64,000 bases of DNA from Escherichia coli. Its GTDB lineage: Bacteria; Pseudomonadota; Gammaproteobacteria; Enterobacterales; Enterobacteriaceae. Of the stretch, positions 1,443 through 40,773 are shown piece after piece. Each line of letters starts with the position of its first letter. Position 1 is the first letter of the stretch. The stretch lies in assembly GCF_011045215.1 (NCBI RefSeq), contig NZ_CP049201.1; one strand, 5' to 3'. Below the pieces are notes generated by a model. That model was given only the letters and a program-made list of their open reading frames with translations, had not been told where the DNA came from and ran no database searches. The position numbers and the translations under genes were made by a program.

Positions 1443-3851
<2,409 letters not shown>

Positions 3852-3852
<1 letters not shown>

Positions 3853-4433
3853 TACAACTTCACCAAACCACTAAAGCCCATAAAGGCCAGAGACATAAGA
3901 CCTGCGGTAATTAACGCAATGGCATTACCGCGAAAAGGAGCCGGGACATCAGCCACAGCAAGGCGTTCGCGGATGGCTGCGAAGAGAACCATCACCAGCG
4001 AGAAACCGACAGCGGCGGAAAAACCGTACAGCGCCGACTGCAAGAAATTGTGCCCGAGATTGATATTCAGCAACGCCACGCCGAGCACTGCACAGTTGGT
4101 GGTGATAAGCGGCAAAAAAATCCCCAGCAGACGGTAAAGCACCGGGCTGGTTTTGCGCACCACCATCTCGGTGAACTGCACAACCACAGCAATCACCAGA
4201 ATAAACGCCAGGGTACGCAGGTAAATCAGATTAAGTGGGATCAAAATCCACGTATCGATAAGCCAGGCGCAAATAGACGCCAGCGTCATCACAAACGTTG
4301 TTGCCAGCCCCATGCCCATCGCGGTTTCCAGCTTTTTGGAAACTCCCATAAACGGACAGAGACCGAGAAACTTGACCAGTACAAAGTTATTGACCAGTAC
4401 AGTTCCGACAAACAGTAACAGGTAGTCAGTCAT
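3852..4433 (-). CDS. rsxA: RsxA/RnfA membrane subunit
   Basis: 193-aa hydrophobic [37 protein letters not shown]...; first gene of the rsx operon. Confidence 0.95.
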
Positions 4434-4509
4434 TTTTCGGCCTGAAATAAAAAAGCCGCCTATTATCCGTTAATCCAGAGCAGGCGACAACAGGTTAACT
4501 GTAAGGTTA

Positions 4510-4950
4510 TTACGGATTCACAAACGTCGCTTTCACCCGCGACGAGCGTTTGAAATAGGGGACGATCAATGCGGTTGCCAACAAAGTAAACAGCAACTGG
4601 CGAACGGCTATGCCATCTTCCACGGGTGAAAAAGCGAACGCTTTTACTGCCAGCAATACGGAAATAAGCAGCCAGATAATATAGTGTTTAGGAACACAAC
4701 GCCGACGTTTAAAGAAAGCGATGGTCAACCACAGTGTGTAATACCACATGGCGATAGCAGTAATAAAAGAAACGCCCCATAAGATTTGTGTCGTCAGTGC
4801 TTGTGCGCCGAGCGTTTGAAATGTTTGCGGAGAAGATAACGCAGCGGTATACAGCAACAACGCCAGCGTCGTACTTAACAGAGCGACTAAAAGCCAGGCC
4901 AACGGGCCAAGCAACCAGCCTCCAATACGTTGTGGCGTTGTGGTGGTCAT
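4510..4950 (-). CDS. ydgK: Inner-membrane protein YdgK
   Basis: ORF 4510-4974; likely start at internal Met (MTTTTPQRIGGWLLGPLAWLL...) giving 146 aa; position between rsxA and cnu. Confidence 0.85.
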   Translation of the reverse strand: MTTTTPQRIGGWLLGPLAWLLVALLSTTLALLLYTAALSSPQTFQTLGAQALTTQILWGVSFITAIAMWYYTLWLTIAFFKRRRCVPKHYIIWLLISVLLAVKAFAFSPVEDGIAVRQLLFTLLATALIVPYFKRSSRVKATFVNP

Positions 4951-5035
4951 AGGTTCTCCAGAATAGCGACGCAAACAGGCAAATCTAATTTTAGGGGCGT
5001 TATTATAAGGCTTTTATAACCGATCGCTACTTTCT

Positions 5036-5251
5036 TTATTGGACATAGTGCCAGACGGACTTCGGTACCTGGCCGAGGTCAAACAAACGCCCGCCAGAAA
5101 CCAGCTCTGCGCGACGGTGATCGGCAGCACGATACATATTGATCAGTTCCTGATCGTCCGTCAGGGTGTAATTAAGATGGTCGTAGAGTTTTTCCAGACT
5201 TTCGAGTGAACTGATTTTGCGAAATTTTAATAAGTAGTCCTGAACAGTCAT
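5036..5251 (-). CDS. cnu: Cnu (YdgT), Hha-family OriC-binding nucleoid-associated protein
   Basis: 71-aa [74 protein letters not shown]. Confidence 0.9.
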
Positions 5252-5523
5252 AAAAGGTCCATAAAATAATTAATACCAAAGGGGTAGGTATTATTAGTGA
5301 TGATAAAATTTCACCAAAAGTGAACGCTTGTGTTATTACAATAATAAGAATGCGCTGATGGCAAATATTCAGGGATGAAAAACTGCTCTGAAAAGAGTAA
5401 CGCGCTTTACTATCCCTGACAATCACCAACAACATCGAACAAGATAATAAATTCCTGGTTTAATATCCGACAAGTGAAAACATGCACCCGGACGGGCAGC
5501 ATGTCGCTCTACAAGTGCAGAGC

Positions 5524-5649
5524 TTACTTGTGTTGTACCGTAGTACTCTGTTCAGGTGGCTGATAGTTGTCAATGTGACTCGCCACGCCAAGAAGAATGA
5601 CTGAAACGACAAGAACGATCCAACCTGTTAATTCAATAAGACGATTCAT
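5524..5649 (-). CDS. blr: Blr, 41-aa small membrane protein (beta-lactam resistance / divisome-associated)
   Basis: Hand-translated minus-strand ORF MNRLIELTGWIVLVVSVILLGVASHIDNYQPPEQSTTVQHK; below the 60-aa cutoff of the ORF track; located between cnu and ydgJ. Confidence 0.8.
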   Translation of the reverse strand: MNRLIELTGWIVLVVSVILLGVASHIDNYQPPEQSTTVQHK

Positions 5650-5891
5650 TACAACTCACATCTCTGTTGATTGATCCATTAACTTCAGGGGGTAAATGTT
5701 ACTTAGCAATAATAGCTCCAGCAAGATTTTTACTGAGGTTTTTGCGATATTTAGCTTTTGTCGTTGGAAAAATCGCTATTTTTTTGACTTAAGTTAAACA
5801 ACATCCCTTATTGCTGGCAGGTTATTAAACTGTTGAGCGAGGGTAAAGGATAGTGTCAAATAGCCATCATACTTCAATGAGAGGCAATGAC

Positions 5892-6932
5892 ATGAGCGAC
5901 AACATCCGTGTTGGGTTGATTGGGTATGGTTATGCGAGCAAAACCTTCCATGCGCCCCTGATTGCGGGCACGCCCGGGCTGGAACTGGCGGTTATCTCCA
6001 GCAGTGATGAAACAAAAGTAAAAGCCGACTGGCCAACGGTTACGGTTGTCTCTGAGCCGAAGCATCTGTTTAACGATCCCAACATAGACCTGATTGTCAT
6101 TCCTACACCCAACGATACCCATTTCCCGTTAGCCAAAGCGGCGCTTAAGGCGGGTAAACATGTGGTCGTTGATAAACCCTTTACCGTGACACTGTCACAA
6201 GCGCGAGAGCTGGATGCGCTGGCAAAAAGCCTGGGGCGTGTGCTGTCTGTATTCCATAACCGTCGTTGGGATAGCGATTTCTTGACGCTAAAAGGTTTGC
6301 TAGCGGAAGGCGTGCTGGGTGAAGTTGCTTACTTTGAGTCTCATTTTGACCGCTTCCGTCCGCAGGTGCGCGATCGTTGGCGTGAACAGGGCGGCCCAGG
6401 CAGCGGTATCTGGTACGATTTAGCACCACATCTTCTTGATCAGGCTATTACATTATTTGGTTTACCGGTCAGCATGACGGTGGACTTGGCACAGTTACGG
6501 CCTGGAGCGCAGTCGACCGATTATTTCCACGCCATCTTGTCCTATCCACAGCGGCGAGTCATTTTACACGGTACCATGCTGGCAGCCGCTGAGTCAGCAC
6601 GGTATATCGTGCATGGATCCCGAGGCAGTTATGTGAAATATGGCCTCGATCCACAGGAAGAACGTCTGAAAAATGGCGAGCGTCTGCCGCAGGAAGACTG
6701 GGGCTACGATATGCGTGATGGCGTACTTACCCGCGTGGAAGGTGAGGAACGTGTCGAAGAAACGCTGTTGACGGTGCCTGGGAATTATCCGGCTTACTAT
6801 GCGGCGATTCGTGATGCGTTAAATGGCGATGGTGAAAATCCGGTTCCGGCAAGCCAGGCAATCCAGGTAATGGAGTTGATTGAGCTGGGCATCGAATCCG
6901 CCAAACATCGCGCGACTTTGTGCCTTGCATGA
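5892..6932 (+). CDS. ydgJ: Gfo/Idh/MocA-family oxidoreductase YdgJ
   Basis: ORF 5853-6932; start taken at Met 14 (MSDNIRVGLIGYGYASKTFHAPLI...) to give 346 aa; NAD-binding GxGxxS-type N-terminus. Confidence 0.9.
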   Translation: MSDNIRVGLIGYGYASKTFHAPLIAGTPGLELAVISSSDETKVKADWPTVTVVSEPKHLFNDPNIDLIVIPTPNDTHFPLAKAALKAGKHVVVDKPFTVTLSQARELDALAKSLGRVLSVFHNRRWDSDFLTLKGLLAEGVLGEVAYFESHFDRFRPQVRDRWREQGGPGSGIWYDLAPHLLDQAITLFGLPVSMTVDLAQLRPGAQSTDYFHAILSYPQRRVILHGTMLAAAESARYIVHGSRGSYVKYGLDPQEERLKNGERLPQEDWGYDMRDGVLTRVEGEERVEETLLTVPGNYPAYYAAIRDALNGDGENPVPASQAIQVMELIELGIESAKHRATLCLA

Positions 6933-6966
6933 AAAATGGATGGTGCAATTTGCACCATCCATTTTT
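6933..6966. terminator. Bidirectional intrinsic terminator between convergent ydgJ and add
   Basis: Near-perfect palindrome aaaaatggatggtgcaatttgcaccatccattttt, flanked by A-run on one side and T-run on the other. Confidence 0.6.
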
Positions 6967-23439: not shown

Positions 23440-25802
<2,363 letters not shown>

Positions 25803-25844: not shown

Positions 25845-27146
25845 TCAAGCAGAGGTAAATTGCGGGATGTTATGCCATAACGGCCAGCTAAACGAGAAGC
25901 GGGCACCACCCAGTTCGCTGGTGTCACAATTAACCGTACCGCCCATTGCCAGTGCTATAGAGTGGACAATTGCCAGCCCCAGCCCGCAGCCGCCGGTTGA
26001 GCGATCCCGGCTGGGATCGAGGCGAACAAAAGGTTCAAAGATATGTTCGCGGTTTTCTGGGGCAATCCCTGGGCCATCATCCTCAACAATTAATGTCGCT
26101 CTATTCCCCGACAGTAGCAGGCTGGTTTCAACCGTTGAATGGCAGTAGCGCAGGGCGTTATTGAGCAAATTATCCAGCACACGCTCCATTAAGCGCATAT
26201 CCAACGCCGCATAATGGCCTTGCGCGAGCGTTTTTATCCGTACCGTTTTATCGGGCGTTACTGCCTGAATGTCTGCCAGATGCGTTGACAGCCACAACGG
26301 CAGGTCTGGTTCGCTAAGATGAAGCTCGTTTTGTGGGCGATCGAGTCGGGCATAAGTCAGCAGCTCTTCAATTAAAGCTTCAAGTTGACTGATATCACGA
26401 TTCAACGCCTGGGATTCGGCGGCGCTCAGGTTATCGCTCATCTCCAGTCGATAACGCAGGCGCACTAACGGTGTTCGCAGTTCGTGTGCAATACCGTCAA
26501 TAAGCTGTTTTTTGCTGGCTATCAAGGCGTTGATATTGTCCGCCATCTGGTTAAATGCGACGCCAAGGCGTTCAAAGCTCGAACCCTCATCAAAGTGGAT
26601 ACGTTCATTGAGATGCCCATCGCCAAATCGTTGCGCCGCAGCTTCCAGTTTTAACATATCCTGCCAGTGCGGACGCATCCAGATAAACACCGGAAAGGCG
26701 AGGGAAATGGCAATAAAAGCGATCAGGGCGATATCCAGCAATCGCATCTGATGGAGGTAATAAAGATAAGGAACAGGACCAACTGCCAGCACGTAGTGGC
26801 TGCGCGGGATACGTTGCAAAAACGTGTACTGATCGTCCAGGGCGACAATTTCGCCGCCACGCAGTCGGTGCATGGAAATATCATCAAGATGGTATTTACT
26901 CAGTGGCTCGACACGCAGATCGAAAGAGAGATTTAAATCCATCTCTTTCAGCGTCTTACCCCAGTCGTGTGGGGGGATCTCACGCAATTCGCTGCGCATC
27001 AGATACAGCGAACTGTTCATCAAATCATCCAGCGACTGTTTGCCCGCGCGTTCGGCGGTAAATTTGTACACCAGCCCAACCAGCAGAGACATCACAAGGA
27101 AGCAGACAAACAATAACAGGTAAAACTGGATAAACAATTTTTTCAT
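25845..27146 (-). CDS. rstB: RstB sensor histidine kinase
   Basis: ORF 25845-27161; start taken at MKKLFIQFYLLLFVCFLV... giving 433 aa; HAMP, H-box (IAHELRTPL) and ATPase motifs present. Confidence 0.9.
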   Translation of the reverse strand: MKKLFIQFYLLLFVCFLVMSLLVGLVYKFTAERAGKQSLDDLMNSSLYLMRSELREIPPHDWGKTLKEMDLNLSFDLRVEPLSKYHLDDISMHRLRGGEIVALDDQYTFLQRIPRSHYVLAVGPVPYLYYLHQMRLLDIALIAFIAISLAFPVFIWMRPHWQDMLKLEAAAQRFGDGHLNERIHFDEGSSFERLGVAFNQMADNINALIASKKQLIDGIAHELRTPLVRLRYRLEMSDNLSAAESQALNRDISQLEALIEELLTYARLDRPQNELHLSEPDLPLWLSTHLADIQAVTPDKTVRIKTLAQGHYAALDMRLMERVLDNLLNNALRYCHSTVETSLLLSGNRATLIVEDDGPGIAPENREHIFEPFVRLDPSRDRSTGGCGLGLAIVHSIALAMGGTVNCDTSELGGARFSFSWPLWHNIPQFTSA

Positions 27147-28895
27147 TGGCATCGCCCGCAACAGAATACTATTCGTATTAATTCACGACTGTGGAGCAAT
27201 GTAAACCGCCAACTGGATAAGGCCTTGTTTGGAAGATAATGTCCGGAACAGACGGATGTATCCCCGGCGTATTCATATTCAGTAAATTCAATTTTCCACC
27301 GGGGCTTGTTTATTATGCTAAGGTTTAATTTAACGTGACGCTTTGTTGTTCTTTAGTCTCTCTATCCTTAAGAAGACGGGCTGATATTACACCGGACATC
27401 ATTGAACCATTCACATTAAGCGCTGTTCTTGCCATATCAACGATCGGCTCTATGGCAATAAAAATACCCACTAATGCGACAGGGAAATTAAGTGTTGAAA
27501 GGACAATCAGCGCCGCGAATGTCCCACCACCACCTACGCCTGCTACCCCTATTGAGCCAAGCGCGATGGCAGGTAAAAGAGTAGCGAGGAATTGCAATGA
27601 GAAGGGATCGATACCCATTGTTGGAGCAATTATCGCCACCATCACGGCAGGATAAATCCCAGCGCAGCCATTTTGTCCCATGTTGGAACCAAAAGACGCT
27701 GCAATATTAGCAATCGTATTTGGAACCCCCAATTTTTCCAATGCAGAAATAGCCAGAGGAATTGAAGCCGCACTACTGCGAGAAACAAACGCAAAGGTAA
27801 GTACTTGCCAGACGGTCTTGTAATAGTTAACGGGGTTTTTACCTATTAACAGCAAAATGCCCGAGTGAACAATAAACATCACAAAAACGGCCAGATAACA
27901 GGCGACGATGAACCCGAGCAAATTGGTAAACTGTGAAAGCTGATACGTTGAGAAGACTTTCGCCATTAGTGCCATTACCCCATAAGGCGTCAGCGCAATG
28001 ACAATACGGACCATTTTCATTACCCATATTTGAATCGCGTTGATCCCCGCGCTCAATTTTTCGCCCTCTGCTGGTGCATCTTTCTTTACTTTTAACAGCG
28101 CAATACCAGCAAGAATTGTAAAGATGACGATGCCAATAACCGAAACACTTCTTGCCCCGGTCAGATCAAGGAAGAGGTTGGTTGGGATCAATGACGTAAT
28201 GAGTCGCGGTAAAGATACCGCAGCTGTTTTCGAGACGTCATCGCTGGTTAAAGAGGATTGCATATGACCAAAGGCGCTGGCATCAAGGCCAATTGCACTG
28301 GCAATAGCCAGGCCAACTAAACCTGCAATCATGACTAAACACAACATACAGGCAACAATAGTTAAAGACATCTTGCCAATACCAGCGCTATTTTCGAGCT
28401 TATTAATCGCTGAAAGAATAGAAATGAATATGAGTGGAACGGCAACAAGTTTTAATAAATTAACATAACCGTTACCAGCAATATTATACCATTCGATAAC
28501 GGTTTCACTGTTTGTCTCAGGAATGAAATGCAGGGAGATACCAATGATAGCCCCCAGGAAAATCGCGATAAAAACACTTTTGGAAAGGGATTCGCTCTTT
28601 TGATCCGTTTTGAAAATCCCCCATGAGCAGATCAAAAAAAGCACAATATATGTGAAAGTTGTAACCATTTTTTAAGCCTCTTGCCTCATTCAGCACCTGA
28701 AATGCCGGAAAGAGTTTGTTGTAAAAAATCTGCGCCATAAGACGCAGGGACGAGGCGATTATAGAGAAATTTTTTCTCATATTCACATCAAATGTAGGGG
28801 GGTTGGAATTTGAATAAGCTCTTATTAATTGAATTCGTTAATTGTTCTCTTTTTCAGATGAACAAATATTAGTCATCTGATTATTTATTGTCACT
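27147..28895. other. About 1.7 kb AT-richer inserted segment separating rstA from rstB
   Basis: rstA and rstB are adjacent in K-12 as I recall; here 1.73 kb intervenes. Left boundary is placed where the RstA C-terminus departs from the expected ...PHAWE; right boundary just upstream of the rstB start. Boundaries are approximate. Confidence 0.6.
27325..28668 (-). CDS. DAACS-family (sodium:dicarboxylate symporter superfamily) transporter, TcyP/YdjN-like, putative L-cystine or amino-acid:cation symporter
   Basis: 447-aa polytopic ORF; shares the family signature FVSRSSAASIPL and long conserved blocks (WYNIAGNGYVNLL, ASFGSNMGQNGCAGIYPA, GVGGGGTFAALIV) with my recollection of E. coli YdjN/TcyP, estimated at about 50-55 percent identity; GAGG RBS upstream; visibly AT-richer than the flanks. 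Confidence 0.8.
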   Translation of the reverse strand: MVTTFTYIVLFLICSWGIFKTDQKSESLSKSVFIAIFLGAIIGISLHFIPETNSETVIEWYNIAGNGYVNLLKLVAVPLIFISILSAINKLENSAGIGKMSLTIVACMLCLVMIAGLVGLAIASAIGLDASAFGHMQSSLTSDDVSKTAAVSLPRLITSLIPTNLFLDLTGARSVSVIGIVIFTILAGIALLKVKKDAPAEGEKLSAGINAIQIWVMKMVRIVIALTPYGVMALMAKVFSTYQLSQFTNLLGFIVACYLAVFVMFIVHSGILLLIGKNPVNYYKTVWQVLTFAFVSRSSAASIPLAISALEKLGVPNTIANIAASFGSNMGQNGCAGIYPAVMVAIIAPTMGIDPFSLQFLATLLPAIALGSIGVAGVGGGGTFAALIVLSTLNFPVALVGIFIAIEPIVDMARTALNVNGSMMSGVISARLLKDRETKEQQSVTLN

Positions 28896-29612
28896 ATCCC
28901 ATGCATGAGGCGCAAAAAGATAGCCTTTGTTACGCACGGTTTTAATGCGATAAGGTTCTGCGGCGTTATCGAGCAGTTTTTTTCTTAACCGCGAAATAGC
29001 CACGTCCACGCTACGATCCAGTCCGTCATAACTGACGCCGCGTAAATTTTTCAGCAATGCATCGCGGTCCATGATTTGCCCGGCATGGGTAGCTAATTCC
29101 CACAATAATTCGAAATCAGCTGTTGAGAGCGAGATTTCAGTGTTAGCCAGGGTGACTACGCGGTTGATAGGATCGATGGTCAACGTGCCGAAATGCAGGG
29201 CTTTGTAGGGAGTCAGAGACGTTTCCTGAAGACCTTTGGTCAGTGTGGCTTGCTCATTCTGACGCAAATGCAAACGTAAACGCGCTAGCAAAACAGCAGG
29301 GGGCGTCGTTTTGAGAATATAGTCGCAGGCACCCATTTCCAGTGCCAGGATGTGGTTCATATCGCTATCGAGAGAGGTTAGAAGAACAATCGGTCCAGAC
29401 CACTTTGCGCGTAAATCACGACAAATGGTCATGCCGTCCTTGCCTGGTAGCATGATGTCGAGTAACACCAAATCCGGATTTTCTCGCAAAATGGTTTCTT
29501 CGGCATGGTCGCCGCGCGGCTCTACGGTAACCTGCATATCATGTTTTGCCAGGTACGCGGCAATCAGTGAACCGACTTCCGCATCATCTTCCACAAATAC
29601 GATAGTGTTCAT
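28881..29612 (-). CDS. rstA: RstA response regulator (OmpR family) with an altered C-terminal tail
   Basis: ORF 28881-29672; start taken at MNTIVFVEDDAEVGSLIAAYL...; receiver and winged-helix domains intact; ends ...GYLFAPHAWDSDNK, where I recall ...HAWE in K-12, consistent with the insertion junction lying in the last codon. Confidence 0.9.
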   Translation of the reverse strand: MNTIVFVEDDAEVGSLIAAYLAKHDMQVTVEPRGDHAEETILRENPDLVLLDIMLPGKDGMTICRDLRAKWSGPIVLLTSLDSDMNHILALEMGACDYILKTTPPAVLLARLRLHLRQNEQATLTKGLQETSLTPYKALHFGTLTIDPINRVVTLANTEISLSTADFELLWELATHAGQIMDRDALLKNLRGVSYDGLDRSVDVAISRLRKKLLDNAAEPYRIKTVRNKGYLFAPHAWDSDNK

Positions 29613-29740
29613 AACATTCACGGTAGATATAAAAACGTCACAATACACCGCGCTGTTTTTACTTACTATCAATCGTTTCTAAACAAGTTTTCATCAGGTA
29701 TTCTACTGATGACTTGTTATGGAAGTGTTAAGGTAAAAAG

Positions 29741-39808: not shown

Positions 39809-40039
39809 ATCACACTCTGGTGGGTAATTATGATTATTAAAAGCAAACCCTCATAAATACTATAGACGGGACGGGATGAAAGTGGGAGTAAAATCAGATA
39901 ACTACAGTCAGGAAAGATAAAAACGGGCGGCAATCAGTGCGCATAAAATAAGGATGATCAGAATGAACTCAAAGCGATAACGGCCCACCATACTACCCTC
40001 CGCTAAAGGCGGTGCTAAACGTTACCCGCTTAGCACCGT

Positions 40040-40083: not shown

Positions 40084-40392
40084 TTACGCTGCGGGTTGTG
40101 CAGCAGGTTTTGCCGGTTGCTGATGGCTGTGTTTCTTGGCGTGTTTCTTCGCTGCCTGCGCTTTTTGTTCAGGGGCTTTCTGTTCAGCTTTCGTATTTTT
40201 ATGATGCTTTTTAGCCGCCTGCGCTTTCTGGGCAGGTGCTGCTTTATGCTGTTTTTTATGATGTGTAGTTTTCGCCGGCGCTGCTTTGGTGGTCGTCGCA
40301 GTCGGAGCAGGTGTGGTCGCAGTCTCTGCAGCAAAGGCGGCAGAAGACAGACCCATAGCAGCGGCAACAACCAGAGCTAATACTTTTTTCAT
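40084..40392 (-). CDS. asr: Acid shock protein Asr (Lys/Ala/His-rich, repetitive)
   Basis: ORF 40084-40419; start taken at [21 protein letters not shown]... giving 102 aa; low-complexity K/A/H repeats. Confidence 0.9.
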
Positions 40393-40773
40393 TGTCATAC
40401 CCTCAATTTGTTTTTTCATTTAACCCCACTGCGGGGCCGTTGAAATAACTATATCCCTGGGAATGGCAGACTTCCGTGAGTGGTTGGTTTCAGCGTGTAA
40501 CGATATGTACAAACGCTGAATAAATTACAGCGTTGATAATAACGTATTGTGACTTAAGGGAAATTTAGCTACCAATAATAGTAGTCTTGATCGGGTTAAC
40601 TATTTTACTACTTACAAAGCGGTAGAATAACTGCGCATCAGTAATAAATGACACACAGCAAAATGAATCCGTTTATTTGGGTACTTATAATCCTGATGAC
40701 GCTAGACGCGCTGCGGGAATTGGCTGGCGCTTCGTCTATTTTAGGATGGCTATTAACGTTGGTTTGAGCAGGC

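Follow-up and report, generated by a model that had tools for sequence, protein, structure and literature searches.

The 1,750 bp that lie between rstA and rstB in the window, by which we mean the whole 64,000-nucleotide stretch of Escherichia coli DNA analyzed here, are best explained, with a probability of about three in four, as a self-contained accessory unit that carries its own promoter, its own leader and a paralogue of TcyP and that is polymorphic in a variable rstA-rstB gap. The unit in this gap would consist of a gene for a 447-aa DAACS symporter preceded by a structured 5' leader and a sigma-70 promoter of its own, and the features of the rstA-rstB locus described below lie on the minus strand.

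Relative to K-12, the 7-bp rstA-rstB linker ATAAGCG is exchanged in the window for a segment at 27147-28896. BLAST homology to K-12 ends at 28897 and restarts at 27146, and reading the junctions base by base gives bounds within 1 nt of those drawn in an earlier, sequence-only reading of this DNA. K-12-like genomes read ...CATGGGA/ATAAGCG/ATGAAAAAA and place the rstB start 3 nt after the rstA stop, whereas 1,734 nt separate the two in the window, so that the coupled rstAB operon of the K-12 type is absent. The sequence-only reading had described this split, with one 447-aa DAACS gene in about 1.73 kb on the same strand, and had placed the K-12 genes a few bp apart, their coupling being lost here; both statements are borne out, and this SDF/DAACS transporter gene, oriented like rstA and rstB, is the only gene in the segment. 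We infer that rstA and rstB are translationally uncoupled here, as in Salmonella, Citrobacter and Kluyvera, where they are also split.

On one side of the segment, rstA (28881-29612, 243 aa) ends in the codons GAT AGT GAC AAT AAA TAA at 28898-28881, with the stop at 28883-28881, and the exact same protein is encoded by other E. coli genomes (P0121). Its tail, ...HAWDSDNK, reads as had been noted, but its reading as a junction artefact is not supported, as RstA also has long tails similar to DSDNK in Citrobacter (DDEPRK, DDESQK) and Salmonella (DETTTE), a likeness that either polarity of the event can explain. Directly 3' of the rstA stop lies an AT-rich inverted repeat, TCAGATGA-N11-TCATCTGA (28854-28880), which is followed by A's and not T's and so is no canonical terminator; the terminator scan did not call it. 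On the other side, a 178-bp spacer (27147-27324) runs from the transporter stop to the rstB ATG. Within it are an inverted repeat with a long loop (27305-27262), a site that weakly resembles a terminator (27253-27241) and, by eye, a weak promoter-like TTTACA-N17-ATTAAT (27205-27177). The rstB gene (25845-27146, 433 aa) starts at the ATG at 27146 and has an alternative in-frame ATG upstream at 27152 that would give a 435-aa protein beginning MPMKKL; gene callers report both lengths in Shigella flexneri. A consensus search for Ter sites returned two matches against 0.07 expected, among them a TerB-type site (GGATGTTGTAACTA, 25784-25797) between rstB and tus, 1.35 kb from the segment.

The product of the transporter gene (27325-28668) matches the Pfam SDF profile (PF00375) over its full length, with E = 9.3e-96 across residues 28-431 and model positions 1-386 of 387, and it aligns with K-12 TcyP from end to end at 46% identity (E = 6e-125); the DAACS family and the TcyP/YdjN type proposed for it are thus both upheld. 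Its relation to transporters of known structure, established at the level of sequence by phmmer against the PDB, extends to the aspartate transporter 9bgz (E = 3e-36), GltPh (1xfh, E = 2e-25) and EAAT3/ASCT2 (E of about 1e-20 to 1e-23). The NCBIfam equivalogs are not reached (GltP 104 bits against a cut-off of 638, DctA 87 against 513, SstT 74 against 308), and no TcyP model of that collection matched the protein. The PGAP gene model is shorter (439 aa, start at 28644); we favour the ATG at 28668 because the N-terminus MxxT.AYI that it adds is conserved among orthologues. Since identity to TcyP is just 46% and the insert-bearing genome NZ_OZ197100.1 keeps a canonical tcyP, these comparisons make the protein a paralogue within the TcyP-like subfamily and not a TcyP orthologue. 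The Salmonella orthologue adjoins sufABCDSE and an Aeromonas homologue adjoins rhodanese and Se/S-carrier genes, and from these neighbours we infer putative import of cystine or a related sulfur or selenium amino acid.

Upstream of the gene, alignment of orthologues and of metagenome leaders reveals a -10 hexamer, TATAAT (28758-28763), that is conserved in nearly all orthologues and marks the gene's own predicted promoter. Around the -35 position the orthologues share a palindromic block, CACACTTTTTGTGTG, of which the window has a degenerate copy (CCTACATTTGATGTG, 28784-28798); it is a candidate operator or activator site. The predicted transcript then opens with two helices. The first, H1 (28723-28747), lies near the predicted 5' end and is terminator-like, with a stem and loop CTGCGTC-TTAT-GGCGCAG followed by the T-run ATTTTTT; nine of its ten pairs show compensatory changes, and its covariation score of 0.267 compares with 0.085 for shuffles (exceeded in 0 of 500) and at most 0.049 for slid controls. 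The second, H2 (28678-28714), is a 37-nt hairpin called by RNAalifold and with a stability of -11.3 kcal/mol, CUCUU-U-CC-GG-CAUU-U-CAG[GUG]CUG-AAUG-A-GG-C-AAGAG, in which the AAGAG of the Shine-Dalgarno sequence AAGAGG (28682-28677) is paired. Twelve of the 14 pairs of H2 never vary and one is compensated, and the loop and bulges are as invariant as the stem across proteins that are only 71-85% identical; invariance beyond the stem suggests recognition of a specific sequence, not of structure alone. Nearly all leaders (33 of 34) are more stable than their own shuffles.

A covariance model of the leader finds one match per orthologue locus and none elsewhere, with no second copy in the rest of the window or near the canonical tcyP. 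The compensated structure and its fixed position relative to the gene are those of a structured cis-regulatory RNA, in an alignment that was itself fitted to the model. Rfam 15 assigns the leader to no family, the best match being BtsR1 at chance level (12.6 bits against a gathering score of 66, E = 8.7), and literature searches on the leader sequence, the S. flexneri TcyP paralogue and the sufA-linked symporter returned nothing relevant. A possible leader peptide, ATG AGG CAA GAG GCT TAA, was discarded as neither its frame nor its start codon is conserved in Citrobacter and Kluyvera. The -10 and the leader are kept in rstA-linked, sufA-linked and other contexts and on both IS-bounded plasmid modules described below. 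We tentatively propose, as an idea with the odds somewhat against it, that the leader is an undescribed effector-responsive cis-regulatory RNA dedicated to the TcyP paralogue across Enterobacterales, either a small riboswitch or a site at which a bound protein or sRNA controls translation, which would move with the gene on relocation to the rstA-rstB gap, the sufA side or the IS-bounded modules.

The same region argues against control by RstA, which the sequence-only reading had suggested for the transporter. Searching with TACATNTNGTTACA, which we take to be the RstA box consensus and which is validated in the window on asr, we found the only perfect box of the window at 40496-40509, upstream of asr, and none with up to two mismatches near 28669-28896; the RstA-like and PhoP-like boxes considered upstream of the transporter gene are chance-level matches only. 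A conserved -10 and leader accompany the transporter gene in all contexts, and these elements, not RstA, probably set its expression.

The layout itself is not new. Among 5,426 complete E. coli genomes one has the segment at rstA-rstB and the other 5,425, like K-12, lack it, and some 20 E. coli draft contigs show the transporter in the same context. The S. flexneri protein (P0138) is indexed for 7,375 assembly blocks, without exception in the order ydgC-rstA-SDF-rstB-tus and with junction bases identical to those of the window, and the accessions of strains 301 and 2457T belong to the same protein cluster. The rstA-SDF-rstB arrangement is therefore the standard, already annotated layout of the S. 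flexneri chromosome and a known lineage polymorphism; the absence of the insert from K-12 was confirmed, while the novelty that had been attached to the insertion was not. Divergence between the window and S. flexneri is 0.91% in the insert and 0.4-1.6% in the flanks, and four distinct alleles can be told apart, two plasmid copies among them. One further protein (P0005, 96% aa), a candidate allele of another Escherichia species, proved to be from another S. flexneri chromosome. The transporter is thus fixed in S. flexneri, partly decaying there, and rare in other E. coli.

The segment is AT-richer than its surroundings, as had been noted, at 42.4% GC overall and 43.5% in the SDF coding sequence (GC3 42.4%), against 48.6% for rstA, 50.9% for rstB, 50.6% for tus and 49.8% for the whole window, and GC3 is 42% against 50-56% in the flanks. 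However, SDF orthologues lie 4-6 GC points under their flanks in every genus examined, so that AT-richness is in part a trait of the family and does not prove recent acquisition. The earlier observation that direct repeats, IS ends and an integrase are missing stands, as no flanking direct or inverted repeat, IS end or integrase was found for the chromosomal copy within the window, which thus bears no mark of a mobile element; in E. coli genomes BLAST found remnants of it at no other site.

A split rstA/rstB locus, which had been regarded as unusual, is normal in several genera. In Citrobacter (four species) and Kluyvera/MGYG (five genomes) the orthologue comes right after rstA, with other cargo and, where the contig reaches, rstB beyond it, and Salmonella has rstA-porin-amidohydrolase-rstB, the translocation of the porin gene ompN next to rstA having been described (PMC4350180). 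The rstA-rstB gap is a variable cargo site across many Enterobacteriaceae.

How the unit came to lie in this gap admits several explanations, of which the least probable is a recent, essentially strain-specific horizontal insertion that disrupted a coupled rstAB operon and perhaps placed the transporter under RstA, as the sequence-only reading had it. The rarity of the segment among complete E. coli genomes (1/5,426), its AT-richness and the loss of tight coupling speak for such an event. Against it stand the recurrence of the junctions, unchanged, in S. flexneri assemblies by the thousand and in several unrelated E. coli isolates, an allelic divergence of about 1%, the occupation of the same site in four other genera, Citrobacter, Kluyvera and Salmonella among them, and a promoter and leader of its own with no RstA box; rarity and recency are refuted by the distribution in S. 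flexneri and by the divergence of the alleles. We consider it very doubtful, too, that the chromosomal copy derives from plasmids. Plasmids of E. coli, Shigella and Klebsiella carry the gene, along with its leader and promoter, between a pair of inverted IS1 copies or a pair of ISKpn26 copies, and derivation from the IS1-SDF-IS1 unit of IncB/O/K/Z plasmids would account for a plasmid segment that ends at base 27147, at the rstB ATG junction: the IS1 boundary coincides with the chromosomal junction to the base, and the gene is demonstrably mobile on these plasmids. Yet at its rstA end the chromosomal copy is longer than the IS1 module by about 95 bp and than the ISKpn26 module by about 55 bp, the window has neither an IS1 remnant nor a 9-bp duplication, and the plasmid allele forms a haplotype of its own that differs by 10-11 SNPs from each of the chromosomal alleles. 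Since S. flexneri chromosomes are rich in IS1 and have IS1 inserting into this very gene, capture from chromosome to plasmid is the simpler direction, and IS1 and ISKpn26 have probably taken up the gene later and independently onto conjugative plasmids. Clean composite transposition was also considered for the plasmids and rejected, as the IS1 unit is flanked by two different 9-bp sequences and not by matching duplications.

Between early gain and ancestral retention the balance tips modestly to an early gain in E. coli, because a sister Escherichia species at 91.3% nucleotide identity has the exact tight junction of K-12 (TGGGAATAAGCGATG) and the junction of Escherichia fergusonii is tight as well; insertion is hence the likelier polarity within the genus, and of the horizontal acquisition originally proposed this much survives, without the recent, strain-specific event. 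The donor would be a relative in which the gene was already linked to rstA and rstB, crossovers would have fallen in the conserved rstA 3' end and rstB 5' end, and the allele would then have spread through homologous recombination. Under retention, which we hold to be the less likely course, a common ancestor of Escherichia, Citrobacter, Salmonella and Kluyvera had rstA with a long tail, then SDF, then further sequence and rstB; the window and S. flexneri keep this layout, and K-12-type strains, the sister species and Escherichia fergusonii carry neat deletions. Much fits this course: synteny and orientation are shared with Citrobacter and Kluyvera, SDF identity between genera (77-86%) is on the scale of that of RstA (80-85%) and RstB (78-86%), each genus forms its own group in the SDF tree, the insert is about as diverse as core sequence, and the D-S-D-N-K tail of RstA resembles the Citrobacter D-D-E-x-x-K. 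The spacer of E. fergusonii, 12 nt long against 3 nt in K-12, could mean independent deletions. No closer donor emerged from very deep sampling with exact-word-limited searches, in which every homologue outside Escherichia is at most 86% identical in amino acids; this tells against gain and would fit long residence in Escherichia. The flanks likewise hold no donor-type SNP tract and are ordinary E. coli sequence up to both junctions; TTG at rstB codon 4, considered as a donor trace, is a common polymorphism present in 460 insert-free E. coli genomes. On the other hand, an identical junction in E. coli and in a species about 9% divergent would require both haplotypes to have passed through speciation with the insert allele staying rare, the GC3 of 42% is much below that expected of a long-resident E. 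coli gene and lower against its flanks than in other genera, and TGG GAA TAA is common to Kluyvera, E. fergusonii and K-12, so that the short tail may be the older. The rstB-proximal spacer does not decide for retention either, since the pattern ..TTAAT..GTATT..CGGnGA..ATG, which by eye recalls the rstB leaders of Salmonella, Citrobacter and Kluyvera, scores no higher than shuffles (summed p = 0.29).

By itself the insertion is of little weight, being an annotated polymorphism at a locus where rstA and rstB are separated in Salmonella, Citrobacter and Kluyvera as well. What it reveals is that cargo genes have repeatedly settled, across Enterobacteriaceae, in the gap between rstA and rstB, at a distance of 1.35 kb from a Ter site, and therefore that the tight rstAB of K-12 is not the general layout. 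Conjugative plasmids of clinical isolates carry a second, TcyP-like putative importer through E. coli, Shigella, Klebsiella and Salmonella, which suggests that the transporter is under selection, and S. flexneri is visibly losing the gene. The invariant leader is a candidate new regulatory RNA tied to sulfur amino-acid uptake.

Comparison with known systems places the unit more closely. K-12 TcyP (YdjN), the cystine/S-sulfocysteine:cation symporter of the DAACS family (TC 2.A.23), shares with the 447-aa protein the SDF family and the motifs SRSSAASIPL, GQNGCAG and VEP..DM.RTALNV, and PGAP and UniRef label some orthologues 'L-cystine transporter'; K-12 tcyP, however, lacks the conserved leader. 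The rstA-'putative transporter'-rstB locus of S. flexneri (AAN43214.1 in 301, AAP17101.1 in 2457T) is the same segment with the same junction bases at about 99% nucleotide identity, but its allele is decaying, with ATG changed to ACG at the start and truncated forms of 348 aa, whereas the window allele is intact; the rstA stop there reads CAA for TAA, which extends RstA to 247 aa, and in some strains IS1 lies in the transporter gene at window position 28454. The plasmid modules resemble composite transposons bracketed by IS elements, which flank only the plasmid copies, the chromosomal copy of the window having none. The split loci of Salmonella (rstA-ompN-STM14_1775-rstB), Citrobacter and Kluyvera have, like the window, 1.7-5.5 kb of cargo genes between regulator and kinase, in a ydgC-rstA...rstB-tus backbone that is conserved (PMC4350180), with differences in content by genus: a porin and amidohydrolase, a NiCoT transporter, an APH(6)-like kinase, a ClC channel, PhzF or an arginase-family enzyme, as against the SDF gene alone in the window. 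The leader, finally, has the architecture of ompA-type leaders, RNA thermometers and translational riboswitches, namely a 5' hairpin, an A/U-rich linker and a hairpin that occludes the Shine-Dalgarno sequence, and differs from them in matching no Rfam family and in an H2 that is invariant in its loop and bulges too.

The locus consists of three consecutive minus-strand genes: rstA (28881-29612, 243 aa counted from ATG), an ORF at 27325-28668 encoding a 447-aa full-length Pfam SDF protein (E = 9e-96), and rstB, which starts at the ATG at 27146. In a K-12-like genome the junction reads ...CATGGGA ATAAGCG ATGAAAAAA, and the rstB start codon follows the rstA stop after 3 nt. Homology between the window and K-12 ends at 28897 and restarts at 27146, 1,750 bp standing in place of 7 bp, and the RstA C-terminus is HAWDSDNK rather than the HAWE of K-12. 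The GC content of the segment is 42.4% (GC3 of the SDF CDS 42.4%), compared with ~50% (GC3 50-56%) for rstA, rstB and tus, and no repeats, IS ends or integrase were found in its flanks in the window. The gene order, ~1.7-kb insert, junction, RstA tail, AT-richness and lack of mobility signatures described in the sequence-only reading were thus all borne out. Insert-bearing haplotypes begin rstB with ATG CCA ATG where K-12 has GCG ATG (27152-27146, minus strand); starting at the upstream in-frame codon, 27152, could lengthen RstB by two residues to 435 aa (MPMKKL...), a form predicted by some gene callers.

The segment occupies the rstA-rstB site in 1 of 5,426 complete RefSeq E. coli genomes, a collection that leaves out Shigella. 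This single carrier is an environmental isolate (NZ_OZ197100.1) whose SDF gene is annotated 'cation:dicarboxylate symporter family transporter', and exact-sequence look-ups placed the RstA variant and the transporter in the same context in several further E. coli assemblies. The transporter cluster includes S. flexneri chromosomal proteins, among them accessions from strains 301 and 2457T, and the main S. flexneri protein is found in 7,375 indexed blocks of the assembly collection. The order ydgH-ydgI-folM-ydgC-rstA-SDF-rstB-tus-fumC was seen in all S. flexneri contexts examined, with both junctions base-identical to the window. Since S. flexneri reference chromosomes carry the same annotated layout, the segment is a lineage polymorphism, already known and annotated in reference genomes, and the novelty originally claimed for it falls. 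In S. flexneri the allele is undergoing decay: its SDF start codon has changed from ATG to ACG (window-equivalent 28667), 348-aa truncated forms of the protein occur, and the rstA stop has changed from TAA to CAA (window-equivalent 28883), lengthening RstA to 247 aa.

Genomes scanned at one per GTDB species gave 16 loci with orthologues at 71-85% amino acid identity and none above that range. In four Citrobacter species the orthologue begins ~240 bp 3' of rstA on the same strand, and between it and rstB-tus come a NiCoT nickel/cobalt transporter gene, an APH(6)-like kinase gene and other genes; the former encodes a HoxN/NixA nickel/cobalt transporter, the latter a homologue of the APH(6)-I-family aminoglycoside phosphotransferases that scores under the curated cut-off, and a ClC channel is encoded in one species. 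Four Kluyvera species and one relative have rstA, an isochorismatase-like gene, the SDF gene and at least one further gene, the contigs extending to rstB-tus in 3 of the 5 genomes. The Salmonella orthologue sits between sufA and ydiH, yet rstA and rstB are split in Salmonella too, with a porin gene and an amidohydrolase gene between them; this agrees with Raghavan et al. 2015 (PMC4350180), who describe how ompN was translocated to between STM14_1775 and rstA. The gap thus accommodates variable cargo, which differs among genera, and separation of rstA from rstB is a common arrangement. In K-12, E. fergusonii, Kluyvera and Enterobacter RstA has 239 aa and ends in HAWE or HAWDN; in Citrobacter and Salmonella it has 243-248 aa, ending for instance in HAWDDEPRK or HAWDETTTE. 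The gap lies 1.35 kb from a Ter site, an exact TerB-type match to the consensus GNRNGTTGTAAYKA between rstB and tus (25784-25797, minus strand); with a second at 5646-5659 (minus strand) the window holds two exact matches against 0.07 expected.

Several observations would fit a segment that has long been resident or was kept from the common ancestor: it shares its syntenic position with the Citrobacter and Kluyvera orthologues, SDF identities (77-86%) scale like those of RstA and RstB, the SDF matrix recovers the genus groups, no sampled donor exceeds 86% amino acid identity to the SDF protein, and the window diverges from S. flexneri by 0.91% in the segment, comparable to 0.4-1.6% in the flanking core genes. 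However, a sister Escherichia species, which shares only 91.3% identity with each of the E. coli genomes, has the exact K-12 junction TGGGAATAAGCGATGAAAAAACTG, the E. fergusonii genes are also tightly spaced (albeit by a different spacer, of 12 nt), and the GC3 deficit of the SDF gene is greater in the window than in any other genus. As retention would require both haplotypes to persist together across a speciation event, we favour an early gain of the segment in E. coli, with a probability of roughly 55%, and regard retention as less likely, although both have real support. The insertion polarity proposed from the sequence is probably right within Escherichia, given the tight junction in the sister species; a recent, strain-specific gain is very unlikely.

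If gained early, the segment may have arrived by recombination with DNA of a relative that has the order rstA-SDF-rstB; the positions of the junctions would be explained by crossovers at the 3' end of rstA and the 5' end of rstB, whose terminal codons are highly conserved. No donor-type tract was found beside the segment. TTG at rstB codon 4, a candidate donor SNP, was rejected as a common E. coli variant, and the likeness between the rstB-proximal spacer and the leaders of rstB in other genera was not significant. The E. fergusonii rstA-rstB-tus locus has 77-80% DNA identity to E. coli (RstA 82% at the amino acid level) and is far more divergent than that of the sister species at 91% (L038 versus L002 and L040); E. 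fergusonii may have had this locus replaced.

Conjugative plasmids from E. coli, Shigella and Klebsiella, at least 12 in number, carry DNA 99.3-99.5% identical to the segment. On IncB/O/K/Z plasmids this DNA lies between two inverted copies of IS1 (3753-6945 of plasmid locus L003), and on pMB06021 between two copies of ISKpn26, whose insertion sites are CTAA and TTAA (module at 4952-8573 of L004); the promoter and leader are kept in both modules. The two plasmid copies are distinct alleles that fall within the ~1% diversity shared with the chromosomal alleles, and hence independent captures. One end of the IS1 module (L003 4520-4521) is 27147, exactly the base adjoining the chromosomal rstB ATG; on the rstA side the chromosome is ~95 bp longer than the module and is free of any IS1 remnant, which makes capture onto the plasmid from an IS1-rich Shigella-type chromosome the simpler direction. 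Some S. flexneri strains have IS1 inside the SDF gene (window-equivalent 28454), with a tetR/tetA region upstream. IS1 prefers targets similar to its own ends, and GGGCGATGCCAA at the 27147 site resembles the IS1 terminal repeat GGTGATGCTGCCAA, a likeness by which the site may be an IS1 target hot spot. An E. coli draft contig (L014, GCA_012161625.1) that matches the window at 100% identity stops at 28809, only a few bases away from where IS1 bounds the plasmid copy (~28800-28803), which points to insertion of a repeat, possibly IS1, near 28809 in some E. coli chromosomes.

The only perfect match to the RstA box TACATATCGTTACA in the window (40496-40509, minus strand) lies ~80 nt upstream of asr (40084-40419, minus strand), just 3' of which is the 27-aa gene ydgU/samT (39908-39991, minus strand); asr-samT/ydgU is a known RstA target operon (PMC13425233). 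With the sole box upstream of asr, the suggestion that the transporter might come under RstA-linked control is without sequence support. Two overlapping PhoP-box-like sequences, with 2 mismatches each, are found just 5' of rstA (29669-29696, minus strand), consistent with the reported control of rstA by PhoP. Translational coupling between rstA and rstB is predicted to be lost in the window. Between the two genes lie two minus-strand terminator-like sites, namely H1, the first leader hairpin of the SDF gene (28747-28723), and a weak one (27253-27241), and inspection by eye revealed only weak promoter-like sequence upstream of rstB. Read-through and an own promoter are both candidate routes to rstB expression, here as in Salmonella, Citrobacter and Kluyvera, where the pair is also split.

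Alignment of 14 upstream regions resolved the conserved 5' leader of the SDF gene (28660-28798, minus strand; also in loci L005, L020-L035, L044, L045 and L049-L067) into a 5'-most palindromic block CACACTTTTTGTGTG, degenerate in E. coli, a conserved TATAAT, the H1 hairpin and U-run, whose stem sequence varies between genera, and an invariant block of ~45 nt ending just 5' of the ATG. This last block is predicted to form a second hairpin (H2, 37 nt) that pairs CUCUU with AAGAG of the Shine-Dalgarno sequence. Compensatory changes affect 9 of the 10 pairs of H1, and its covariation score, from an alignment fitted to the model, is 0.267 versus 0.085 in shuffles (0/500) and at most 0.049 in slid controls; H2 is essentially invariant on the covariance-model alignment. 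As an independent control, 33 of 34 leaders were more stably folded than their own shuffles. Arsenophonus and Apirhabdus, whose proteins are 71-75% identical, have the element, and the Aeromonas and Plesiomonas homologue loci lack it. An exact-core scan of metagenomes returned 19 loci, each directly 5' of an orthologue, and the covariance model gave one match per orthologue locus, with none elsewhere in the window or near canonical tcyP. The leader is confined to this orthologue group, across Enterobacterales. Having its own conserved promoter and leader, the SDF gene would appear to be an autonomous unit. No Rfam family matched the leader and no matching paper was found in the literature, and this RNA is the only part of the locus with real discovery potential.

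The transporter family had been called correctly from the sequence, as in addition to its full-length SDF match the protein shares 46% identity over its whole length with K-12 TcyP (YdjN); its scores fall far under the NCBIfam cut-offs for GltP, DctA and SstT, and its structurally solved relatives are the GltPh-type and EAAT/ASCT transporters. The Salmonella orthologue adjoins the suf operon and the Aeromonas homologue has rhodanese, Se/S-carrier and MauE genes as neighbours, a hint that the substrates may be sulfur or selenium amino acids. TcyP, as its PGAP product name also has it, is an importer of cystine and S-sulfocysteine, and since canonical tcyP is still present in the insert-bearing genome, the SDF gene is an extra paralogue.
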